Positions 5,067 to 57,723 of a stretch of 64,000 bases of DNA are shown piece after piece. The DNA comes from a virus. The DNA is taken from UHGV virus genome UHGV-1366990; one strand, given 5' to 3'. Below the pieces are notes generated by a model. The model was not told where the DNA came from and ran no database searches. It saw only the letters and a program-made list of their open reading frames with translations. Made by a program: the position numbers and the translations under genes. How positions within the stretch are numbered: the stretch's first letter is position 1; the number at the start of each line of letters is the position of its first letter.

Positions 5067-5181
5067 ATATTACTCTCGTGTGTTGGTTAACATGACATAC
5101 ATATTATTTCGCGTGCATGTTTAGACCAAATAAATTAATTTTGCTGTTGAATAAAAACTGCTTTCTTGTTGAACAACGGCG

Positions 5182-5190
5182 TGGTATTAT
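5182..5190 (+). promoter_or_regulatory. Extended -10 element TGgTATTAT
   Basis: In 360-bp AT-rich region upstream of gene 45. Confidence 0.3.
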
Positions 5191-5229
5191 ACGAGTTGTG
5201 AGCGTTAGCGAACAACGAGTATTTGTTTT

Positions 5230-5249
5230 ATGAGCGAAGCGAATAGGAT
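5230..5249. repeat. 20-bp element ATGAGCGAAGCGAATAGGAT, also present inverted at 48746..48765
   Basis: Exact 20/20 match on opposite strands, 43.5 kb apart. Confidence 0.8.
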
Positions 5250-5258
5250 TAATAAAGA

Positions 5259-5295
5259 TTATTATCTTTAATAAAGGTTATTATCTTTAATAAAG
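5259..5295. repeat. Tandem direct repeat, 2 x 18 bp (TTATTATCTTTAATAAAG) separated by 1 nt
   Basis: Copies at 5259..5276 and 5278..5295; partial third copy upstream. Confidence 0.8.
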
Positions 5296-5298
5296 TCC

Positions 5299-5319
5299 AT
5301 AAATGCCGAAGGCATTTAT
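5299..5319. repeat. Perfect 9-bp-stem hairpin (ATAAATGCC gaa GGCATTTAT)
   Basis: Inverted repeat read directly from sequence. Confidence 0.8.
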
Positions 5320-5427
5320 TAATAACGCGTAGCGCAATTTGCCACTTGTTCTATAAGCAAAACACAGCGATACTAGATTTCGTCAAACATGACTTGAACC
5401 CCCACTATATTTTGAGGATACATACAA

Positions 5428-6096: not shown

Positions 6097-6176
6097 TCAA
6101 TCTCCAGCCTGATGCTATAATGTGTGGGCGGGGCGTTCCCCGCCTATTTGAAATGATTCTTCTACACGAGGCTGAA

Positions 6177-32549: not shown

Positions 32550-35477
32550 ATGTCAAAGCTAAGTTTCCTCCAGTTCATGCAGGAAAGAGATCAGTTGGAC
32601 GAAGCGTTCAACTCCGCTCCGTATGAGCTGACTATGGGTAAGAAGAACGCAGGCGATGTGTTCTTCACCTTCGTCGACGAAGATGAAAAGGAATACCGTA
32701 TTCAGTTCTATACCCCTCAGGGGCTGGGTAAGAGTGTTCGTCAGGTTTTCATCGGCCAGAAGCGCGGCTCCGTCTATCCTGACGCCATCGCTCGCTTTAA
32801 GAACCCAATGCGCGTTATCGCTTCCATGATCGAAGCGACCAAACAATTCATGGCGACTCCTCTGGGCAAGACCATCGATGGCTTTGCTGTCAACTTCTCT
32901 AAGAAAGCGCTGGATCGTGGGATGACCCTGATTCCTAAGATCATCCGCCAGTCCGGCCTGAAGCAGAAACTGAATGTAATGGACCTGACCTACGCGCCTG
33001 TCCCTGACCGTGGTTATGTGTGGCTAGTTCGTAAGGGTAAAGATCCGGCTCAGGTATTTGACGGTCCGAAGATGCAGGGTATCACATGGGATGATCCAGA
33101 CAAGGTCGGTGACGTTCCGGTTCAGAACAGCGTTGATGGCGTTGTGGGTGGAACTGGTCAAACCATTGTTGTTGGTGTTGATTTCCGTTCTGAAATGGAA
33201 GACTTGGATATTTCGGTGTCTGGAAATGATATCACAGTGATGGATGGGCGCAAACTCGTAGTGTCTTTCACTGATCCCGAGACAGCTAGAATCATTTCTG
33301 GGATGAAAACCCCTTCTGCTGCAATTACCAATTTCATGCAAAAAACGAATCCAGGAAGATACACTGGAAACATCAAAGTTAACAGCACGAGTACCCGCAG
33401 TGGCAAGAAATATGAATTTATTGCTTCCGACTCATCTGGGAAACAATTGTTCAATCTAAACGTAGAAGATTCCAGAAAAACAAACTTGGGAACCGGGGCT
33501 GGTTCTTCTGAAATCGAAGTCAACCGCGAGTGGTACAACAGCTCGGACACTGGTCTGAAGTTGAAGAGCGGGCGAGACCCGATTCGTGGAAACTACGTCC
33601 GCCTGATAAGCGGTTCGAAAGAAGTAGCCGCATTCTATGGTTATGATTTTGACAAATATCCAGACGGGACTGAGGTATCTTGGAATATGAAGCGCGGCTT
33701 CACCAACCAAGACTTGGTCGGTGCGTCCATGACCAAACAGAAGAAAGGCATGTACGATCAGTACACTTTCAAGAAAGGTGCTCAGATAATTCTGGTGGTG
33801 GACGTTGACACCAGCAATGACACCAGCAATGACACCAGCAATGACAACGGTTGGAAACTCGCAAAAGCCGACGCCACTCAACCAATGTTAGTATGGGCGG
33901 GGAAAGAAAAGGGTCGCTTAGTCACGGCAAATATCGCTCCCCACTACAATGAGCCGGGTGTGTATGTTGGCGCATACATGAATGAGAAACCTGTGCGTGG
34001 GCAAAGTGCTGATTTCATTGCTCGTCAGTTGAAATTACCGCAAGTCCCTATCAGTATCCTGAATGATTTCACCATGGCGTCCACAAATTTTTGGAAAGGT
34101 TCTCAGCAGAAGTCCGCGCCAGCTGACTCCAACACCACAATCGGGGCAACCAGTATCGATCAATTGCGTGACAGCGGTTTCATCGCTCGTGTTCTGGGTA
34201 TCATTGATACCAACATTGACCAGAAAGCAAGCTATCTCCCAGGGGAAAGCATTAAGAAGATCGGACAGGCGCGTTATCAAACTAAAGGTGGTCTGGTGAT
34301 CATCGTCAGCTTCGATTCAGTCGATGGCAAGAATCTGACCTACAACGTGTTCTCTGAAATCGAAACTCAGCCTGGTGTCATCTCTGGCGATGCTCGTCGG
34401 GTGGCAAACGAAATTATGGAAACGATCACACACGTGGCCGAACATCAGTATCGTGGCGGATGGGAAATTAGCGCAGTGCCAACAAGCGCTCCATACCCTA
34501 TCAAAGCCATTCGCCGTTCTCGGGGCTGGGGTTATGTGGAAACCGCAAACTGGACTCTGAAAGTGTCCGACGCTGTCCTGAATCGTGTGAAGCCAGGGAA
34601 CACTGCTCTACTGGAACTCATCAAAGAGCCTCCGCGTGGCAAGCACCTGCTGGAAATCATCCCAGAGAAGGGCGACAAGACCCTGATGCTGAAAGATCGT
34701 ATTACCGGGGCCATCTATGGTTCTATCGACCTGAATGCCCAAGGTGCTGATCTGGTCAACTCTGGAACCCTGAAGATACCAAGCAACGCCATGGTGTTTG
34801 GTGAGACTGTCAACGGTATGTCCATTCGGTGGAATGTCAATTTCCCCGAAACAGGAAAATATGCCGGTACTTCTATGATAACCAACGTAACATATTATCA
34901 CGACAAAGGCAAAGTTGCATTCACCCCAATTGTCTCTCAGAAAGGGCGTACCCTGAACAATCCGAAGACATATGAACTTCCTTTAAACAAAGATATGGTC
35001 CAGAGTGTGATTGATGAGATTTCATCAAAAATGGAATATCTTTCCAGAAACCTCCAACAGTTGAAAAGTCAGTCATACAACCCAAACCAGGTGTTCTTGA
35101 ACGATATAACCATCACGGATAAAGGTGAAGTGATTTGGAATGATTACAACTTGTCTGACGGCAAAGTTACACAAATTATGCTGTCCATGATAAGCGCAGA
35201 AAATAAACGCCTGGAGAAAGTAGCAAACACGCCGGATATCAATATCACATTGCCAAAGAAACAAGCTGAAGTGGTAGAATTTATAAACCGGATGATTGAT
35301 ATTGATCTCACCCCTTATGTGAGAACCCCCAAAAACCGTGATGTGGTATTATTTTACTCTTCTGAATTGTCGATAAACCAACTCAACAACATAGAACGCC
35401 TGGGAAGAGAAACAGGAAAATGGTCTCTTCAGTCAAACGGCGGTATGGGTCATGCACTATTTCTGAATGTTTGGTGA
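32550..35477 (+). CDS. Large hypothetical protein (975 aa) containing a (DTSN)3 tandem repeat
   Basis: Long ORF, RBS AGGAG; no catalytic motif recognised. Confidence 0.75.
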   Translation: MSKLSFLQFMQERDQLDEAFNSAPYELTMGKKNAGDVFFTFVDEDEKEYRIQFYTPQGLGKSVRQVFIGQKRGSVYPDAIARFKNPMRVIASMIEATKQFMATPLGKTIDGFAVNFSKKALDRGMTLIPKIIRQSGLKQKLNVMDLTYAPVPDRGYVWLVRKGKDPAQVFDGPKMQGITWDDPDKVGDVPVQNSVDGVVGGTGQTIVVGVDFRSEMEDLDISVSGNDITVMDGRKLVVSFTDPETARIISGMKTPSAAITNFMQKTNPGRYTGNIKVNSTSTRSGKKYEFIASDSSGKQLFNLNVEDSRKTNLGTGAGSSEIEVNREWYNSSDTGLKLKSGRDPIRGNYVRLISGSKEVAAFYGYDFDKYPDGTEVSWNMKRGFTNQDLVGASMTKQKKGMYDQYTFKKGAQIILVVDVDTSNDTSNDTSNDNGWKLAKADATQPMLVWAGKEKGRLVTANIAPHYNEPGVYVGAYMNEKPVRGQSADFIARQLKLPQVPISILNDFTMASTNFWKGSQQKSAPADSNTTIGATSIDQLRDSGFIARVLGIIDTNIDQKASYLPGESIKKIGQARYQTKGGLVIIVSFDSVDGKNLTYNVFSEIETQPGVISGDARRVANEIMETITHVAEHQYRGGWEISAVPTSAPYPIKAIRRSRGWGYVETANWTLKVSDAVLNRVKPGNTALLELIKEPPRGKHLLEIIPEKGDKTLMLKDRITGAIYGSIDLNAQGADLVNSGTLKIPSNAMVFGETVNGMSIRWNVNFPETGKYAGTSMITNVTYYHDKGKVAFTPIVSQKGRTLNNPKTYELPLNKDMVQSVIDEISSKMEYLSRNLQQLKSQSYNPNQVFLNDITITDKGEVIWNDYNLSDGKVTQIMLSMISAENKRLEKVANTPDINITLPKKQAEVVEFINRMIDIDLTPYVRTPKNRDVVLFYSSELSINQLNNIERLGRETGKWSLQSNGGMGHALFLNVW
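33807..33848 (+). repeat. In-frame 12-bp tandem repeat (GACACCAGCAAT) x3.5 encoding DTSN repeats
   Basis: Three exact copies inside ORF 32550..35477. Confidence 0.85.
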
Positions 35478-45758: not shown

Positions 45759-46220
45759 ATGACAAACAAGATACTCACCAACCCAATGCACAACTTCGGT
45801 TACATTCAACTCCCTCTGGTGATCGACACCCTGTACGCCGACGACAAAGAAGAGATCTGCTGGTCACCCACCGCACTGATTGAACGCGAAATCTTCAAGT
45901 CTGTTGTTGATGTTATGTTCCGTATCGGTCGCAATGGACCTCTGGTCTACCTCGGCAAAGTAACTGAACTGAAGACAAGCCACAATGAACGCTTCCTGCG
46001 TATTGATACCACAGGGTGCTCTCAGCAGGACTTCAACACATTGCGCAATTATGTTCTGGTCAACCGCCCGGTCAGCCAGCACCGACCGTATCTGACTTCA
46101 ATGCACATCGACAATTTCATCACCGACGTGCACCTCCGCGCCGAAACCCTCCATGAAGAGGAAACAGGCCGAGCTATCGACACAGTCTTAAATATGGTTG
46201 TGATCACCCTGGCGGAGTAG
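45759..46220 (+). CDS. Hypothetical protein
   Basis: Own promoter TTTACT-N17-TATACT and GGAACTATATC leader. Confidence 0.6.
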   Translation: MTNKILTNPMHNFGYIQLPLVIDTLYADDKEEICWSPTALIEREIFKSVVDVMFRIGRNGPLVYLGKVTELKTSHNERFLRIDTTGCSQQDFNTLRNYVLVNRPVSQHRPYLTSMHIDNFITDVHLRAETLHEEETGRAIDTVLNMVVITLAE

Positions 46221-46225
46221 TCCTC

Positions 46226-46576
46226 ATGCAAGATTACAAAGAGTTGAGAATGCAGCTGGCAGTCCCCATACCAGACAAAGGTTTATACCAAAACCTGCAT
46301 CATCTGATGTCTGAAGGGCATATGCTGCCCTTGCGGTCTGAGGATGGATCTCAGATCGGTTATGCCACCAGTTGCGTGGTCTACGACAAACCAGGAGACG
46401 AAGAGCGCGGACAGGTCAGTGTGGGTTCCAGATTTGTGTTGAACAAGAAGCTGGAGGGATCAGTGGTTGACGTCAGGCCGATGATTATCCTCTACCACTT
46501 CAACGGCAAAGAAATGTTCAGGTTATTGAGCCACTTCATGATAGTCGTGGCTCCGGCATTCAGGACGAAACTCTAA
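46226..46576 (+). CDS. Hypothetical protein
   Basis: 116-aa ORF. Confidence 0.5.
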   Translation: MQDYKELRMQLAVPIPDKGLYQNLHHLMSEGHMLPLRSEDGSQIGYATSCVVYDKPGDEERGQVSVGSRFVLNKKLEGSVVDVRPMIILYHFNGKEMFRLLSHFMIVVAPAFRTKL

Positions 46577-46953
46577 TTCGTCCTTTTCAACCACACGGTG
46601 TCTGTTATTGGATCTGGATTGTTGACCACATAGAATGTGATGGTCACGCCCAGAGAATGGTAATCCTCTGACAGACTCACCGTGACTTCTTCTACCTCTG
46701 CTCTGGGTTCATACAGGGCGATGGCGTCCTCTACTTTGTTCTTCACATCTACCTGGATAGTCGGTGTCGTGTTTTCACCCAGCAGCCCATAAAGCCCCGC
46801 GCCGATCCCAGGATAAGTGGGCCAGTCCCCGACTGAAGACATGACGATATTCCGCACGGATTGTAAGACAGCATACACACCTGATTTCATAGTGACGTCT
46901 TTGGTCACCGGATGCATGCCGAACTTCAGATCGACATCTTTATACTCTTTCAT
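46573..46953 (-). CDS. 25: Baseplate wedge protein (gp25/GPW-like)
   Basis: 126 aa; size and sequence pattern of gp25-family lysozyme-like baseplate proteins. Confidence 0.7.
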   Translation of the reverse strand: MKEYKDVDLKFGMHPVTKDVTMKSGVYAVLQSVRNIVMSSVGDWPTYPGIGAGLYGLLGENTTPTIQVDVKNKVEDAIALYEPRAEVEEVTVSLSEDYHSLGVTITFYVVNNPDPITDTVWLKRTN

Positions 46954-47026
46954 TTCGCGATCCTCTCAGGATGCCTATAAGGAGCAGAGAGACGTGCTGT
47001 CCCTCTGCCACTAAACTTATACCAAC

Positions 47027-48637
47027 TTACTCTTTGGTGCCGAAATTACCACCATTGTCTTTTAATTCTGCCTTGATGTCAATCTCACCCGGACCCGTAG
47101 GGGATGCAGGGGTTGCACCTGACAGAGAAGAAGCGCGACCAGCACCTTCGGCATATATGATGTTACCATTGATCGTCTGAGCGACAGTCAGTTTGTCAGC
47201 GATTATCTCAGTCGTTAGAATCTTAGGAACCTTCAATGTCCCACCGACCTCCAGAGTCTCGCAGATAATGCGCAGAATATTCTGCGCTTGCATTTCCGCT
47301 AGGTCACTGAATTTCATCAGCGCTGTGCCCGCAACCACGTTGGAGTAATTGTTGGAATGCAAATGATAGACCTCACCTGTCTTGCGCTGAACTTCAGTTC
47401 CTTTGACCGTCAGGTTGTGGTCCCCGCCGACATAATAACGCTTGTTGAACATCGTCAGGTCATAGTGGTCTTTGACGGACTTGTTGACCACATCACCATC
47501 CGGCAACATTTGCTTGTAAGACCCAGACTTATGCATCCAATGAAGACGTTCACCACCAGGGGTGTCATCCACTTCCATAATATGCCCAGCTCGGGACACC
47601 ATGACGTTATTGTACGGGTATTTAGATCCACCCGCAGCCGGAACCATGGTTTCTCCAGTGTTGTCAATATCCTGTACTCGCCCAGTAGGAGCCGGAGTCG
47701 GTTGTTCCTTTGGAGTACGATCTGGGATAGGTTCTGACCATTTACCATTCTGCTGCGCAGGCGCGGCTGTGGCTGTGTTAGCAGGACCAGGCCAACGATA
47801 TCCCAAGACCGAAGAACGTCTGAAACGACTGACCTTCACTGAATCGGATTGGTTGCCACCAATACACCAGACATAGTTTGCATCGAACTTCTGCACAAAC
47901 GCTACGTGTCCAAATGTGGGGTTGTTACCACGCCGGAAGACTACGATAGCGCCATATTGTGGTGCTGACAGTGGAGTGCCCCATGTAAGGTAAGATCGGG
48001 CAAGAGCGGAGCGCGTAGACGTGTATCCAGCCTGTATCATAACCCAACCCACGAACGCCGCACACCACGACACTTCATCTTCAGAAGCACCAAGGGAGGT
48101 TGTCTTGTGATATTCTATAATGCGCGGGTTGTTGTTGAACTTTCCAGCGTACTCCTTGATACCCAATTCGCCACGAGCGATTGTCATCCACTTCTCTGGA
48201 TCATACCCGCCAACAGGTGGTTGTGGATCTGGTTGTGGTTCGTCTTCTTGTTTCACAGGAACGTCAGTGACGGCGTTGTACGCCTGACGTTCCACAGATT
48301 GAACGACCTGCCCGAGAGCCAGCGGGTTTGTGTCGGCGCCATCAGTAGGGCTTGAACCAGTCCAAGTCCAGGTGATGCGTAAATTCTGGTATGCTTCGTC
48401 AAGGGCGAACCCCATAACCTCAGTGCCAGGAATGATACCCGTTGGAGACCAACCTAAACCAGCAGAGGAGGCGTTTGAAGCAGGCATCAGTACCTTCGCC
48501 CATGGGAGTTTGTCCGTAGGCAGGAGGACGGGATCGTCGGTGTGTACGCCATATATGCGAACAGCAACTCGCCCATTTTGGTCTGGATCGTTGACATCTT
48601 CAACGGTGCCGTAAAACCATCTCATATTGTCTAACAT
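47027..48637 (-). CDS. 5: Baseplate hub/tail-puncturing protein (gp5-like) with CHAP/NlpC-P60-like domain
   Basis: N-terminal OB region resembles T4 gp5; central SWCAAFVGWV...GHVAFV Cys/His motif; C-terminal beta-helix-like region. Confidence 0.75.
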   Translation of the reverse strand: MLDNMRWFYGTVEDVNDPDQNGRVAVRIYGVHTDDPVLLPTDKLPWAKVLMPASNASSAGLGWSPTGIIPGTEVMGFALDEAYQNLRITWTWTGSSPTDGADTNPLALGQVVQSVERQAYNAVTDVPVKQEDEPQPDPQPPVGGYDPEKWMTIARGELGIKEYAGKFNNNPRIIEYHKTTSLGASEDEVSWCAAFVGWVMIQAGYTSTRSALARSYLTWGTPLSAPQYGAIVVFRRGNNPTFGHVAFVQKFDANYVWCIGGNQSDSVKVSRFRRSSVLGYRWPGPANTATAAPAQQNGKWSEPIPDRTPKEQPTPAPTGRVQDIDNTGETMVPAAGGSKYPYNNVMVSRAGHIMEVDDTPGGERLHWMHKSGSYKQMLPDGDVVNKSVKDHYDLTMFNKRYYVGGDHNLTVKGTEVQRKTGEVYHLHSNNYSNVVAGTALMKFSDLAEMQAQNILRIICETLEVGGTLKVPKILTTEIIADKLTVAQTINGNIIYAEGAGRASSLSGATPASPTGPGEIDIKAELKDNGGNFGTKE

Positions 48638-48671
48638 ATTGAATTCCGGTTGTCAAACAAGGATTTGAAGG

Positions 48672-48679
48672 TATTTATG
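48672..48679 (-). promoter_or_regulatory. Late-promoter-like CATAAATA (minus strand) upstream of gp5-like gene
   Basis: Plus-strand TATTTATG; same ~35-nt spacing to start codon 48637. Confidence 0.45.
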
Positions 48680-48745
48680 CGCAGCTGATTTTGCCTTATA
48701 TACTATAGGAAGCTCTGCTTCCGTTCATTTTATTTGTTTTATTCG

Positions 48746-48765
48746 ATCCTATTCGCTTCGCTCAT
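48746..48765. repeat. Inverted copy of the 20-bp element at 5230..5249
   Basis: Reverse complement identical to 5230..5249; preceded by shared 11-mer TATTTGTTTTA (48731..48741; 5220..5230). Confidence 0.8.
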
Positions 48766-48973
48766 CAAACCGCCCTATGCGGGCAGCACCATTCCAATGC
48801 CATGGAGGCATAAGGGCGAGGCAATAACTGTACACCCCAGAACACTCCTTGAAAAATGGTATTTTACTGACAATCTGATTCAAAACAGACAAACACCAAC
48901 AAATGACTCGGGAACAAGCCCATTATAGCAATTTCAGGTAAAGAGAGTGCGTGTTAACCGATTTTACAGTTAA

Positions 48974-49001
48974 GCCAATAAAAATCCCGCCGAAGCGGGA
49001 T
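48974..49001 (-). terminator. Minus-strand rho-independent terminator
   Basis: ATCCCGC/GCGGGAT stem followed on the minus strand by TTTTTATT. Confidence 0.5.
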
Positions 49002-49149
49002 TACTGTTTCTTAGACAACCTGACCTTGAGGGCTTCGGTTAACAAGTCAAGATGCCATGGCATCGACTCGTTGATTTCAAATATACTATAGCCGTGTAAC
49101 TTCAATTCATCACACATCACGAAGTAGGATAATAAATCAGTTTCAAACA

Positions 49150-49956
49150 TTAAATGAAAATTTCATTAATACTATTGAATTCGATTTTGTGCTCCTTACC
49201 ACATTTCGGACACTTGATCGAACTCTTGTAGTGGATGCGCGGTATTTTGTGGAAGAAGTTCTTCGTAATGCTGTCAATAACATCTGATTCGATGTTATCC
49301 TTCACCCACTCAACAAACGCTTCTTTCACACGGCGGCGCTCAGTAGCCTCTTCCGGAGTGATCCCGATTTCTTCAGGATTCTCAACCTTCCACACCTGAC
49401 CGTCATCATCGTACAGACAGTCGATAAAGGTGGCCAGCATCATCTCAACGCTTACAGCATCAGACATTGCCGTAGCGTCCGAGAAGGAAGGTTGGCGCAT
49501 CTTGAGGTGATATCCACCTGGCAGGTCAAACGTCTCCCGGAAGCCGTCCTGAGCAATGCATTTGACGTTGTTCAACGGGATAGGTAGAGTCAGTTCCTGC
49601 TCACAGGGAACCATCTGGTGCTTTTCTTGACCATCTCCCAGATCGATCGTTTCTTCAATCTGATTATTACACTTATAACGAATCTTCATCAATTCACCGA
49701 TGGAGATCATGCGCATGCGGATGAACACTTCCTCAACAACGCCGATTGGCAGTTTACTGAAAGGTGCGCCTGCATTTACACACTCGCTAAAGAGACTCTC
49801 CATCATGGCCGCGCGTTCTTCAATCGGCGTTTGCGGATCTGACACCTGAAGTAATAAAGTTTGTTGCCCCGCAGTAAAGGCGCGATATTTGATCACAGTA
49901 GGCCAAAAGTCGCTTTTATATGTCTTTTCTGTTCTGGGCAATGATGGTAAATTCAT
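49150..49956 (-). CDS. Hypothetical protein with C-terminal zinc ribbon (CPKCGKEH)
   Basis: Internal ATG (MNLPSLP) of minus ORF 49150..50070 with RBS GGAGA. Confidence 0.6.
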   Translation of the reverse strand: MNLPSLPRTEKTYKSDFWPTVIKYRAFTAGQQTLLLQVSDPQTPIEERAAMMESLFSECVNAGAPFSKLPIGVVEEVFIRMRMISIGELMKIRYKCNNQIEETIDLGDGQEKHQMVPCEQELTLPIPLNNVKCIAQDGFRETFDLPGGYHLKMRQPSFSDATAMSDAVSVEMMLATFIDCLYDDDGQVWKVENPEEIGITPEEATERRRVKEAFVEWVKDNIESDVIDSITKNFFHKIPRIHYKSSIKCPKCGKEHKIEFNSINEIFI

Positions 49957-49999
49957 AATGTATCTCCACGGTATATTGTAAGAGTAATTATAACGAGGA

Positions 50000-50530
50000 A
50001 TGAAAATGCGCGGATTTTGTTTTAGTGAAATAGGCAAAGAACTGTCTATACAATATCCCGATCCCAACACAGACTTCTTTATCTTCCTGACCGATTATGC
50101 CAAGAAAGAGAATATCCTCCATGTGGCAATGAAACACGAAGATTATAAGTTCTGTCGGCTGGGTGTCAAAGACCTGCTGCGTTATGGTCTACAAGTGGTC
50201 ATCGTAGACCCATACTACAGCCCTATCGACGATGAAGAAGTTCTACCCGTATATGTTCACCGCAACATCAATACATTGGAAAAGCATTATCCAGATTGTA
50301 TTGTCATCGGCGAACTCATCTCGTATTATCATCGTGTGCGAAAGCTGGAACAGATTAAAAGTTATTTTCAAGAGGGTGTTGGTCAATATAAGATGAATGC
50401 CCTTAGTAGTGGATGGATGGTGCTGTCTTCAGCAGGCAGTGCTGACTATATTAAGATGCGTGTCTACCAATACGTTGTGGAGCGCGATTATGAACTGGAG
50501 AAAAGTAATGCAAAACGAAAAACCCGTTGA
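50000..50530 (+). CDS. Hypothetical protein (start 50000 or 50006)
   Basis: 176-aa ORF, divergent from minus gene. Confidence 0.55.
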   Translation: MKMRGFCFSEIGKELSIQYPDPNTDFFIFLTDYAKKENILHVAMKHEDYKFCRLGVKDLLRYGLQVVIVDPYYSPIDDEEVLPVYVHRNINTLEKHYPDCIVIGELISYYHRVRKLEQIKSYFQEGVGQYKMNALSSGWMVLSSAGSADYIKMRVYQYVVERDYELEKSNAKRKTR

Positions 50531-57648: not shown

Positions 57649-57723
57649 ATTTAAGTTCAGAAACTGTTCAATAGATGAAGGGGTTGCTATAATAGCAGCT
57701 CCTTTTGTTTATCGGAGCAGTTT

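Follow-up and report, generated by a model that had tools for sequence, protein, structure and literature searches.

The translational operator of bacteriophage T4 gene 32 is a pseudoknot in a structured 5′ mRNA leader. RNA folding also enters the expression of the T4 late genes e, soc and 49, which are reached in addition by early transcripts whose fold blocks translation. We know of no autoregulation of the baseplate hub/lysozyme gene gp5 and, to our knowledge, no N-like or Q-like factor has been described for the Ackermannviridae. Members of this family (Vi01, CBA120, Det7, LIMEstone, Ag3 and their relatives), which has over 270 genomes in GenBank, are widely isolated and used for biocontrol, and their transcriptional programme is essentially unmapped. 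The literature that we searched for Ackermannviridae transcriptomes, small RNAs and promoters yielded only sequence-based promoter predictions, and we found in it no paper on a structured RNA in the gp5 spacer.

Here we analyse a 64,000-nt stretch of the virus genome UHGV-1366990 (the window), which derives from a phage of the Ackermannviridae with about 99% identity to Escherichia phage A221. A first-pass annotation of this sequence had marked a 512-bp non-coding gap at 48638..49149, upstream of gp5. We find that this 'empty gap' is a small conserved baseplate gene together with a 363-bp spacer. Our best reading is that the spacer specifies a new structured RNA, for which Rfam has no match and which would act as a cis-acting leader/attenuator or as a small RNA.

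Results

A small baseplate gene occupies the right-hand part of the gap

The left-hand 363 bp of the gap (48638..49000) are non-coding, as had been claimed, and the right-hand part (49001..49150, minus strand) is a 49-aa gene, orf49, recognized from the ORF list, the annotation of relatives, a PHROG match and codon-position conservation. The first-pass annotation had stated that a conserved protein gene in related phages would overturn its reading of the gap; such a gene is present in the right-hand 150 bp and absent from the remaining 363 bp. The ATG of orf49 overlaps the stop codon of gp26 as TAATG, an arrangement through which the two genes are presumably coupled in translation. The gene is annotated in A221, Ag3, SKML-39 and XF4, its product matches phrog_9633 from end to end (49/49 residues, E 2.9e-39), and between-clade identities of 0.85/0.93/0.64 at the three codon positions correspond to a coding pattern. 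Frame, substitution pattern and protein family together indicate that orf49 is a real, family-wide gene; in Kuttervirus it would start at ATT. A weak match to phrog_634, the baseplate hub assembly catalyst (E 4.4e-4), weakly suggests that the product is gp51-like. A small ORF also lies 3′ of gp26 in Vibrio and Stenotrophomonas phages, and the gp51-like small gene is missing from the EspM4VN, FEC14, Maynard and IME250 records.

The gap had further been described as the largest in the window and as lying between early and late modules. Neither description holds. The annotation of the 99%-identical A221 shows gaps of 537, 444 and 442 bp elsewhere, and the flanks of the gap, gp26-orf49 and gp5-gp25, are co-directional baseplate-hub genes of the late type, which leaves no early-late boundary between them.

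The gp26-orf49 operon is closed by an intrinsic terminator, which a terminator scan placed at 48977..49002 on the minus strand, in agreement with an earlier call at 48974..49001. The hairpin itself (48983..49002; AAUCCCGC-UUCG-GCGGGAUU) has 8 pairs, 5 of them G-C, and a 4-nt loop, begins within the orf49 stop codon and is followed by the U-tail TTTTTATT. The sequence of its stem varies by clade with complementarity kept, the minus-strand U-tail is good in all clades, and the annotation of phage Maynard has a terminator at this position. With GC-rich hairpin, U-tract and operon end all present, the element is read as a Rho-independent terminator. Immediately beyond it lies a weak element, an imperfect palindrome or hairpin (48954..48973, minus strand; UUAACUG-UAAAAU-CGGUUAA) seen in alignments read by eye. 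It is kept in some clades only, includes a minus-strand U·G pair in the window and in lineage N, and is degenerate in part of Kuttervirus and in Klebsiella Taipeivirus phages.

The spacer is more conserved than its flanking genes

Comparison with homologous intergenic regions, which had been proposed in the first-pass annotation, showed that the spacer is more strongly constrained than the genes on either side. Its identity is 92.8% to Limestonevirus and ~72% to Kuttervirus, whereas at third codon positions the flanking gp5 and gp26 reach only 60% identity to Limestonevirus and 39 to 52% to Kuttervirus/Taipeivirus. Conservation extends over four described genera and two lineages known solely from metagenomic or sequencing-run assemblies, and between-clade identity peaks at 0.97 in the bin 48794..48813. 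Intergenic regions are generally conserved in the Ackermannviridae (the gap upstream of gene 45 has 81% column identity family-wide), so conservation alone does not make this spacer special.

Within the spacer, covariance-model limits define a conserved core at 48697..48852 (minus strand), which holds a proposed pseudoknot, hairpin H2, a G·A hairpin and hairpin H1. The covariance model, R1, scored 183.8 bits on the window itself. At 14 further loci, drawn from five lineages, it scored 113 to 182 bits. The core persists, at 115 bits, in a lineage whose gp26 shares no more than 65% identity with that of any other clade compared, and it scarcely changes among phages that infect Salmonella, Escherichia, Klebsiella, Dickeya, Serratia and Enterobacter. 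By these measures it is a previously unannotated, folded-RNA-like module (putative pseudoknot plus hairpins) common to most Ackermannviridae phages. An IMG/VR pattern search and a gp26-based search returned the same 19 isolate-like genomes, and a new lineage was added by the Logan look-up only.

The core is not coding, because 1-nt indels between clades fall within it and the plus-strand ORF that crosses it (48734..48928; 64 aa, or 43 aa from the first ATG) has no PHROG family. That ORF had already been judged spurious, and our results bear this out: a 1-nt deletion in Taipeivirus brings an in-frame stop after 17 codons, with a W to G change, while the nucleotides are still conserved. Hardly any change is seen at any codon position in its 5′ half, its 3′ half is unconstrained, and it is annotated in phage ChubbyThor only. 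As a gene it fails on both frame conservation and protein-family membership. Spurious ORFs are called over the RNA core in the ChubbyThor, PMBT18, Zahir and phi1_146041 records.

On the other strand, a micro-ORF of 18 to 21 codons (48811..48749, minus strand) would encode a leader peptide, MPPWHW(N/K)G..., whose Pro-Pro-Trp could stall ribosomes. Its AUG falls in the 5′ arm of the H3 stem and is preceded by no Shine-Dalgarno sequence (anti-SD pairing +0.9 to −2.2 kcal/mol), yet the frame is open in all 13 distinct sequences, plus lineage N, and a −1/+1 indel pair between the window clade and Kuttervirus restores it. The first 8 codons vary at third positions only (CCA/CCC, AAU/AAG, GGU/GGG/GGC), but two of these variable third positions covary as a base pair, at least twice on the gp26 tree, and past residue 8 the peptide is not conserved, through frame differences or the compensatory changes in H2. 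Moreover, a longer version that starts at GUG is broken by a stop in the 99%-identical A221. We regard a leader peptide as improbable.

Known RNA families do not account for the core. The covariance-model scan that had been suggested (Rfam and tRNA models) assigned it to no family: Rfam 15 gave no match at gathering score in the whole 64-kb window and, at E up to 10, no match to 48697..48852 in five phages, and no tRNA or tmRNA was found. Such weak Rfam matches as appear in the gap (E up to 10, window and four related phages) are all driven by the terminator hairpin. A search for host-derived or host-mimicking sequence gave no match in 5,426 E. coli genomes and none in JGI metagenomes, and there was no exact match to the core in one genome per bacterial species. 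Several look-alikes were also set aside. The CUGAUGA core of a hammerhead-like arrangement (UGAUGAGC-GAA-GCGAA) is lost in other clades, which read UUACGAGC or UCACGAGC. Among motifs noted by eye, a CsrA-type GGA hairpin on the plus strand has a single site only, an anti-Shine-Dalgarno CCUCC is fully paired in the structural model, the CRISPR-repeat resemblance of H2 and the terminator stem reflects generic GC stems only, and a lambda boxA-like CGCUCUUA is present in only part of the window clade.

The gap had been thought able to hold an origin, a small RNA or a regulatory hub. The RNA or regulatory part of this suggestion is sustained by conservation above that of neighbouring coding sequence and by covariation-supported helices, and the origin part is not. 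T4 oriE lies in the gene 5 region, and the spacer offers a positional analogy to it, with a promoter-like element followed by a stretch of 33 to 40% GC that might serve as an unwinding element in the manner of T4 origins. The analogy extends little further: there are no direct repeats or iterons and no GC-skew feature, and the AT-richness is modest (33 to 57% GC across the spacer) and no greater than in neighbouring coding DNA such as 49110..49199 at 25% GC. Conservation, moreover, peaks in the GC-richer structured core and not in the AT-rich part. Of the explanations considered here, a replication origin is the least probable.

The core fits five helices on the gp5-sense strand

We fitted the core with five helices on the gp5-sense strand, namely H3, a pseudoknot stem, H2, a tandem-G·A hairpin and H1. 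The 26 proposed pairs are paired in 390/390 alignment cells (28 to 48% in slid controls), counts that come from 15 distinct sequences of about five lineages in which most pairs never vary. Compensatory double changes occur at 6 pairs, in 23 cells; the number of cells was reached by 0/500 shuffles and the number of pairs by 25/500. The covariation score was 0.206 versus 0.090 in shuffles (0/500). The pairs of the pseudoknot and of the G·A hairpin were absent from the model that built the alignment. Single-sequence folding z-scores were modest, −1.1 to −2.8.

The most conserved element is a proposed H-type pseudoknot at 48789..48811 on the minus strand (AUGCC-U-CCAU-GGCAU-UGGA-AUGG), put forward on conservation and a covarying pair. 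Its stem 1 is H3 (48797..48811), a perfect inverted repeat of 5 bp that never varies, and its stem 2, of 4 bp, would pair the H3 loop with the 3′ junction. Across the five lineages the 23 nt vary at two positions only, which form one mutually compensating pair: pair 56-68 of stem 2 is A-U in 10 and C-G in 5 of the 15 sequences. On the gp26 distance tree ((K,T),(N,A)), assuming that this tree holds for the spacer, at least two double changes are needed, and the pair thus appears to have switched from A-U to C-G at least twice. The loops would be of 1, 0 and 4 nt, lengths that are sterically borderline for a pseudoknot. An invariant inverted repeat such as H3 would also be expected were the spacer a DNA-level regulatory region with no functional RNA fold, in which palindromes are protein sites, H3 and H2 for instance being operators, accompanied by promoter and terminator signals. 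However, the H3 palindrome is found only once in 64 kb, and covariation between its loop and the junction has no rationale in a DNA site.

Hairpin H2 (48769..48787; GCUGCCC-GCAUA-GGGCGGU) has 7 bp on the minus strand and only 4 bp on the plus strand. Two of its pairs show compensatory double changes, with U·G intermediates in Limestonevirus/EspM4VN and in one Kuttervirus. Next to it is a hairpin with possible tandem G·A pairs, A-Y-GA-GC-(N3-4)-GC-GA-R-U (48751..48765, minus strand), which lies inside a 25-nt element at 48746..48770. Its Y-R pair is U-A in the window clade and C-G in all others, and the same switch is seen in a copy upstream of gene 45. This hairpin is also present in Bue1 and phiMAM1, phages without the pseudoknot-H2 domain.

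Hairpin H1 (48708..48722; GGAAGC-AGA-GCUUCC) abuts TATAGT (TATAAT in other clades) and lies 28 nt upstream of the candidate late promoter. It occurs in four fully complementary variants, GGAAGC/GCUUCC, GGAUGC/GCAUCC, GGCUGC/GCAGCC and GGCGGC/GCCGCC, the last in Bue1. The terminator scan flagged it as terminator-like on the plus strand, where its tail is more U-rich. At the DNA level H1 could accordingly serve to stop antisense transcription, and AT-rich −10-like motifs flank it on both strands; against this, stems here change freely when complementarity is kept. Further pairings were rejected. The outer part of a long-range helix enclosing the core (UUAUU/AAUAA with clade variants, CUCGC/GCGAR) did no better than shuffled partners in 13 sequences, and its inner part competes with the G·A hairpin, which has the covarying pair and is found by itself in Bue1, phiMAM1 and the gene-45 gap. 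Lineage N keeps neither a 3-bp CUG/CAG helix nor the lengthening of H3 by 2 bp.

The two strands differ in how well they accommodate the same pairs: the minus strand has 27 G·U pairs and 0 mismatches, the plus strand 27 A·C mismatches, with all 27 cells in H2, in three columns of this one helix. In most clades the terminator has a good U-tail on the minus strand only. From these three H2 columns, the orientation of the terminator and a promoter motif, we infer that the minus strand, that is the gp5 sense, is transcribed. The U·G intermediates, which arose in two clades, fit RNA helices, whereas to a DNA-binding protein that acts as a dimer they would present a mismatch in one half-site. A purely DNA-level region would gain from the general conservation of regulatory gaps in the Ackermannviridae and from the recurrence of the 25-nt element, in opposite orientation, in another intergenic region, but overall we think it rather unlikely, and somewhat less likely than a free small RNA.

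The recurrent element had been reported as an inverted copy shared with the region upstream of gene 45, which is correct: 48746..48770 and 5225..5249 are complementary at 24/25 positions. The 11-mer said to be shared between the two regions likewise stands, as the 12-mer TATTTGTTTTAT at 48731..48742. The gene-45 upstream gap contains two more G·A hairpins (5199..5249, plus strand), the second inside the inverted 25-nt copy, so that the window has three intergenic copies, at 5199(+), 5231(+) and 48752(−). The core and the gene-45 upstream gap have in common a scaffold in which a G·A hairpin is followed by an AU-rich spacer and a GC hairpin.

Candidate promoters lie on both sides of the proposed RNA module

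A T4-type late-promoter-like motif, CATAAATA, occupies minus-strand positions 48672..48679, which are 35 nt before the gp5 ATG at 48637, as had been noted earlier. It agrees with the T4-type late consensus TATAAATA at 7/8 positions and is a candidate promoter for gp5-gp25. On the plus strand, where it reads TATTTATG, the motif does not vary among 11 aligned phages, and Bue1, phiMAM1 and lineage N have it too. For Ag3, a late promoter before gp5 has been proposed from sequence-based prediction (PMC3121705). This candidate promoter is downstream of the whole RNA module, so the main late gp5 mRNA would lack the module, which could then act only on RNA that starts upstream or arrives from there.

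A possible source of such RNA is an extended −10, sigma-70-like motif, TGCTATAAT, at 48922..48930 (minus strand), from which a gp5-sense transcript could start near 48916. A scan found no −35 hexamer for it. Identical TGCTATAAT motifs occur at 6113(+) and 57685(+), each just 5′ of the start of a plus-strand gene, and TGNTATAAT occurs 6 times in the window versus 1.25 expected. In the window phage the motif is a perfect extended −10; its counterpart reads TATAAC in Kuttervirus, where C replaces the final T, and TATATG in lineage N and phiMAM1, where G does. Between this candidate promoter and the core is a variable AU-rich segment (48853..48921, minus strand) with a between-clade identity of 0.31 to 0.50 and 33 to 40% GC.

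We also considered whether a long transcript masks the gp5 ribosome-binding site. No such effect is seen in the window phage, where the site has an unpaired probability of 0.83 in both the long and the short predicted transcripts, and the outcome is inconsistent among the other phages scored. The unmasked site would suit a free, trans-acting phage small RNA of ~210 nt, made early from TGCTATAAT and ending at H1. It would have its targets in the host or the phage, or would tie up a conserved host protein, and would not control gp5 in cis. The module would be outside the main gp5 mRNA, being upstream of the candidate late promoter, and it has a terminator on one side and a hairpin on the other, as a self-contained unit might; a core near-invariant over six host genera also fits a partner common to all hosts. 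On the other hand, Kuttervirus and lineage N have a degenerate form of the promoter motif, and termination at H1 would be inefficient, because the minus strand has no U-tract there (UAUAGUAUAU). With CCUCC fully paired in the pseudoknot model there is no obvious exposed seed, and recurrence of the scaffold before gene 45 looks like a cis device. A free small RNA is on balance unlikely, and ranks as a close second to the cis-acting leader/attenuator.

Discussion

Our preferred explanation, in which we place about even confidence, is that the 363-bp spacer encodes a structured non-coding RNA in the gp5 sense, preferably a cis-acting leader/attenuator. Transcribed in this sense, the conserved half of the spacer (48697..48852) would present the compact pseudoknot, H2 immediately after it, the small possible tandem-G·A hairpin, an AU-rich linker and H1, the last directly before gp5's own candidate late promoter. 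RNA would reach the module from TGCTATAAT at 48922..48930 or by read-through of the orf49 terminator. The pseudoknot-H2 domain may bind a conserved partner, either a protein or a small ligand, and such binding would set the fate of upstream transcripts, namely a stop or processing at H1, or passage into gp5-gp25. In this scheme we infer both the transcript ends and the partner or regulatory outcome.

More doubtful is the further proposal that the pseudoknot-H2 domain represents a new class of phage regulatory RNA, a ligand- or protein-binding aptamer inserted in an older hairpin scaffold of the kind seen before gene 45, whose role would be to gate the transcription or processing that leads into the baseplate-hub/lysozyme operon, or to capture a host factor common to all Enterobacterales hosts. 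If so, the 23-nt nearly invariant sequence would be the recognition surface. An unannotated element that is near-constant while neighbouring proteins diverge to ~65% identity is in any case a candidate new phage RNA. Should the module control gp5-gp25, the timing of baseplate assembly in T4-related phages would gain a layer at the level of RNA. For annotation, the analysis supplies a missing small gp51-like gene and corrects the spurious ORFs over the RNA core.

How does this locus compare with described systems? The element at 48983..49002 is a standard intrinsic terminator, and H1, with its A-rich 5′ flank and A/U-rich 3′ flank, is reminiscent of bidirectional terminators. In contrast, nothing terminator-like is seen in the proposed pseudoknot, H2 or the G·A hairpin, and the U-tract of H1 is weak on the gp5-sense strand. 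As for T4 e, soc and 49, there is a candidate late promoter near the gene and a possible sigma-70-type start upstream that would give a longer, structured transcript. However, the gp5 ribosome-binding site is predicted to be equally accessible in long and short transcripts (0.83 in both), and the defining mechanism of those genes is not seen.

The lambda nut boxA/boxB and HK022 put sites resemble the spacer in that short hairpins would lie between a candidate promoter and a downstream hairpin or terminator. H3 is similar in size to boxB (5-bp stem and 5-nt loop), and in several members of the window clade CGCUCUUA, identical to boxA, is located immediately 5′ of it. Unlike boxA, the octamer is not conserved, being CGCCCUUA in the window, CGCCUUUA in Kuttervirus and one base shorter in Taipeivirus, and unlike boxB, the H3 loop lacks a GNRA-like sequence.

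The T4 gene 32 operator differs from the spacer element in position and in target: the spacer element is upstream of gp5's candidate late promoter and not in the mature mRNA leader, and its downstream gene specifies a baseplate hub/lysozyme and not a nucleic-acid-binding protein. By analogy, nevertheless, the two would share a compact H-type pseudoknot in an untranslated region, in the spacer's case of a T4-related phage, followed by AU-rich sequence, and in both a high conservation of primary sequence suggests a bound partner.

A conserved gene within the gp26–gp5 gap

Positions 47000..50100 match 272 Ackermannviridae records. Identity is 99% with Escherichia phage A221 as well as with several further phages of E. 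coli, Enterobacter and Salmonella, and 93% with Shigella phage Ag3. The first-pass annotation described 48638..49149 as 512 bp of non-coding DNA, the largest gap in the window, and as a possible site of a regulatory hub between early and late modules. However, it is flanked by a gp26-like hub subunit gene (49150..50070, minus strand; phrog_150, E 1e-56) and a gp5-like hub/lysozyme gene (47027..48637, minus strand; phrog_430, E 1e-154), with gp25 (46573..46953, minus strand) downstream of gp5. Since gp26, gp5, gp25 and a small gene within the gap, orf49, are all on the minus strand, the gap falls within a small island of baseplate-hub genes rather than at an early/late boundary. Bigger gaps also occur elsewhere in the annotation of the near-identical A221.

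About one third of the supposed gap is orf49 itself (49001..49150, 49 aa), whose ATG overlaps the gp26 stop codon (TAATG) and whose 3′ end lies inside a terminator stem. The gene is annotated in A221, Ag3, SKML-39, XF4 and ChubbyThor, and has a full-length match to phrog_9633 (E 2.9e-39) and a weak one to phrog_634 (‘baseplate hub assembly catalyst’ family). Its protein is nearly constant in all clades, identity by codon position being 0.85/0.93/0.64, lowest at the third, and a small ORF also follows gp26 in Vibrio and Stenotrophomonas relatives. We conclude that orf49 is a real conserved gene, so that the true spacer is 48638..49000 (363 bp). A conserved protein gene, which would contradict a non-coding reading, is therefore present as orf49 but not in the remaining 363 bp.

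Several records annotate only a shorter orf49 or none. In Kuttervirus and Taipeivirus the start at the gp26-stop overlap is ATT, not ATG (TAATT versus TAATG; window equivalent 49118..49150, minus strand), yet the 11 codons ahead of the first internal Met are preserved, with mostly synonymous changes; this points to initiation at a non-AUG codon, to termination-reinitiation or to fusion with gp26 by frameshifting. At 49044..49063, inside orf49, Met-Pro-Trp-His codons form a perfect 12-nt palindrome, ATGCCATGGCAT, resembling the arms (ATGCC...GGCAT) of a spacer helix, H3, 240 nt away. The likeness may be coincidence, or mark an RNA–RNA or protein contact site.

Constraint on the spacer

Used alone as a query, the 363-base spacer matched 270 phage records, nearly all carrying no annotation there. 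Agtrevirus and Limestonevirus spacers are 92 to 95% identical to it; the figure is about 72% for Kuttervirus (over 285 nt) and about 70% for Taipeivirus. By comparison, the third codon positions in gp5 and gp26 have an identity of only 60% with Limestonevirus and of 39 to 52% with Kuttervirus and Taipeivirus. Between-clade identity, computed in bins, is highest (0.97) in 48794..48813, stands at 0.71 to 0.73 on either side and drops to 0.31 to 0.50 in 48854..48912. ORF calls in the spacer are few and inconsistent between records, and 1-nt indels occur inside its conserved core (48697..48852).

The small features first reported here are real. A terminator hairpin with a T-run lies at 48983..49002; the late-promoter-like CATAAATA is at 48672..48679, 35 nt ahead of the gp5 ATG; an inverted 25-nt element (48746..48770) is complementary at 24/25 positions to 5225..5249; and a 12-mer is common to the spacer and the gene-45 upstream region. 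The 64-aa plus-strand ORF is judged spurious, having no PHROG family and being cut to 17 codons by a Taipeivirus deletion around which the nucleotides stay conserved. On the minus strand a micro-ORF, MPPWHW(N/K)G..., stays open throughout the sequences, yet it has no Shine-Dalgarno sequence, starts inside a stem and has an unconserved tail; two of its variable third positions form the covarying pair of a proposed pseudoknot.

A proposed fold in the core, with covariation

Recurring hairpins were spotted by eye and then with RNAalifold. A covariance model built from 13 distinct core sequences retrieved the core in all Agtrevirus, Limestonevirus, Kuttervirus and Taipeivirus members examined, and in lineage N, which was reached via the orf49 protein in Logan assemblies. 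Lineage N (SRR26624006, DRR804665, DRR279222) is apparently an undescribed group of Ackermannviridae whose orf49 homologue is 51 aa long and whose 384-nt spacer contains the RNA core; no clade compared with it has a gp26 more than 65% identical to its own.

Read as gp5-sense RNA, the core would contain H3 (AUGCC/GGCAU); pseudoknot stem 2, in which the H3 loop CCAU pairs with AUGG four bases downstream (H-type); the 7-bp H2; a G·A hairpin (Y-GA-GC-loop-GC-GA-R); and the GC hairpin H1, found in four complementary versions (GGAAGC, GGAUGC, GGCUGC and, in Erwinia phage Bue1, GGCGGC). We scored this hand-written five-helix structure on a 15-sequence alignment, built with a model lacking the pseudoknot stem and the small G·A hairpin. 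Standard pairs occupied 390/390 cells, and pairing dropped to 28 to 48% when the partners were shifted 1 to 3 columns. Both sides changed in six pairs and 23 cells, in a sample of only about five lineages with most pairs invariant; the cell count was reached by 0/500 shuffles, although the covarying-pair count alone was reached by 25/500. The covariation score was 0.206 versus 0.090 in shuffles (0/500), and single-sequence folding z-scores were modest. At one position of the pseudoknot stem, the clade of the window phage and Kuttervirus have an A-U pair, Taipeivirus and lineage N a C-G pair. A gp26 distance tree groups Kuttervirus with Taipeivirus and lineage N with the window phage's clade, so that, provided the spacer follows this tree, the pair must have undergone two or more double changes.

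Strand and candidate promoter

On the gp5-sense strand the tested pairs comprised 363 Watson–Crick and 27 G·U cells without mismatch, whereas the opposite strand gave 27 A·C mismatches, all within H2; one H2 column forms a U-A, U·G, C-G series, with the wobble in Limestonevirus/EspM4VN and one Kuttervirus. In most clades the U-tail of the orf49 terminator is good in the minus direction only, and 55 nt beyond this terminator lies a candidate extended −10, TGCTATAAT (48922..48930, minus strand). The window has six copies of TGNTATAAT, where 1.25 would be expected. Against a secure promoter, a scan found no −35 for this site, and its −10 hexamer changes to TATAAC in Kuttervirus and to TATATG in both lineage N and phiMAM1. 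The H1 tail is more U-rich on the plus strand. On balance we favour the gp5 sense as the RNA strand.

The two other exact TGCTATAAT copies (6113..6121 and 57685..57693, both plus strand) each lie just upstream of a plus-strand gene, with a hairpin within a few bases and then the gene start; they look like the phage's sigma-70-type promoters, with transcripts starting in a 5′ stem-loop. Among other repeats, a 20-nt family, AGAGACTATATCATGAAAAA, occurs with 80 to 100% identity at five plus-strand sites (17372, 17671, 21026, 32127 and 45747), each containing an ATG; the last spans the start of ORF 45759..46220, and the family may serve as a common motif in translation initiation or near promoters. 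Three copies of a 17-nt unit, TGACACCAGCAATGACA, are spaced 12 nt apart at 33806..33846, making an exact tandem repeat with a period of 12 nt, presumably a four-residue repeat in coding sequence.

Relatives and the gene-45 gap

The spacers of phiMAM1 (Serratia) and Bue1 (Erwinia) resemble that of the window: besides a terminator and CATAAATA, they contain a −10-like motif, a GC hairpin and one or two G·A hairpins. Both lack the pseudoknot–H2 domain, where Bue1 shows a 67-position deletion in the covariance-model alignment; Stenotrophomonas relatives lack a spacer altogether. Two more G·A hairpins, oriented as gene 45 (sliding clamp), lie in its upstream gap (5067..5427) and repeat the U-A to C-G switch between clades. 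This gap is conserved family-wide (81% column identity across three genera) and mostly unannotated. It also holds a hairpin, AAATGCC-GAAG-GGCATTT, and a direct repeat in two copies, ATAAAGrTTATTATCTTTA, the latter found only in the window in a three-phage alignment. The picture suggested by these comparisons is of an older hairpin scaffold serving ahead of at least two genes, to which an ancestor shared by the enterobacterial genera probably added the pseudoknot–H2 domain at the gp5 locus.

A possible role for the element

The checks proposed at the outset, a scan for known RNAs and an intergenic comparison, revealed no known family in the core and a spacer conserved in relatives. With the threshold relaxed to E 10, Rfam still gave no match to the core in any of five phages; at gathering score the whole 64-kb window had none, and no tRNA or tmRNA gene was found in it. 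No core relatives were found in E. coli genomes, and exact copies of the core motif were absent from one genome per bacterial species and from JGI metagenomes. The suggestion of an origin finds no support, there being no iterons, marked AT trough or skew feature; the H3 palindrome occurs once in the window. As for the proposed small RNA or regulatory hub, a regulatory RNA is plausible, but the gap is not an early/late junction.

Because the module lies upstream of gp5's candidate late promoter, it would not belong to the principal late gp5 mRNA. It could act only on RNA from the candidate spacer promoter or from read-through of the orf49 terminator, or as free RNA. A partner bound to the pseudoknot–H2 domain could decide the fate of upstream transcripts, which would either end or be processed at H1 or continue into gp5–gp25. 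Masking of the gp5 ribosome-binding site as a cis mechanism was unsupported. A trans-acting small RNA is a close second; recurrence of the scaffold (G·A hairpin, AU spacer and GC hairpin) ahead of another gene favours a cis device, and hence a leader or attenuator is our preferred reading of the module. In the literature searched on Ackermannviridae we found only sequence-based promoter predictions. Overall, the features reported in the first-pass annotation stand, while a third of its gap is a gene, and the spacer element is a candidate for a new structured RNA family restricted to the Ackermannviridae, one that is cheap to test and helps to correct annotation.
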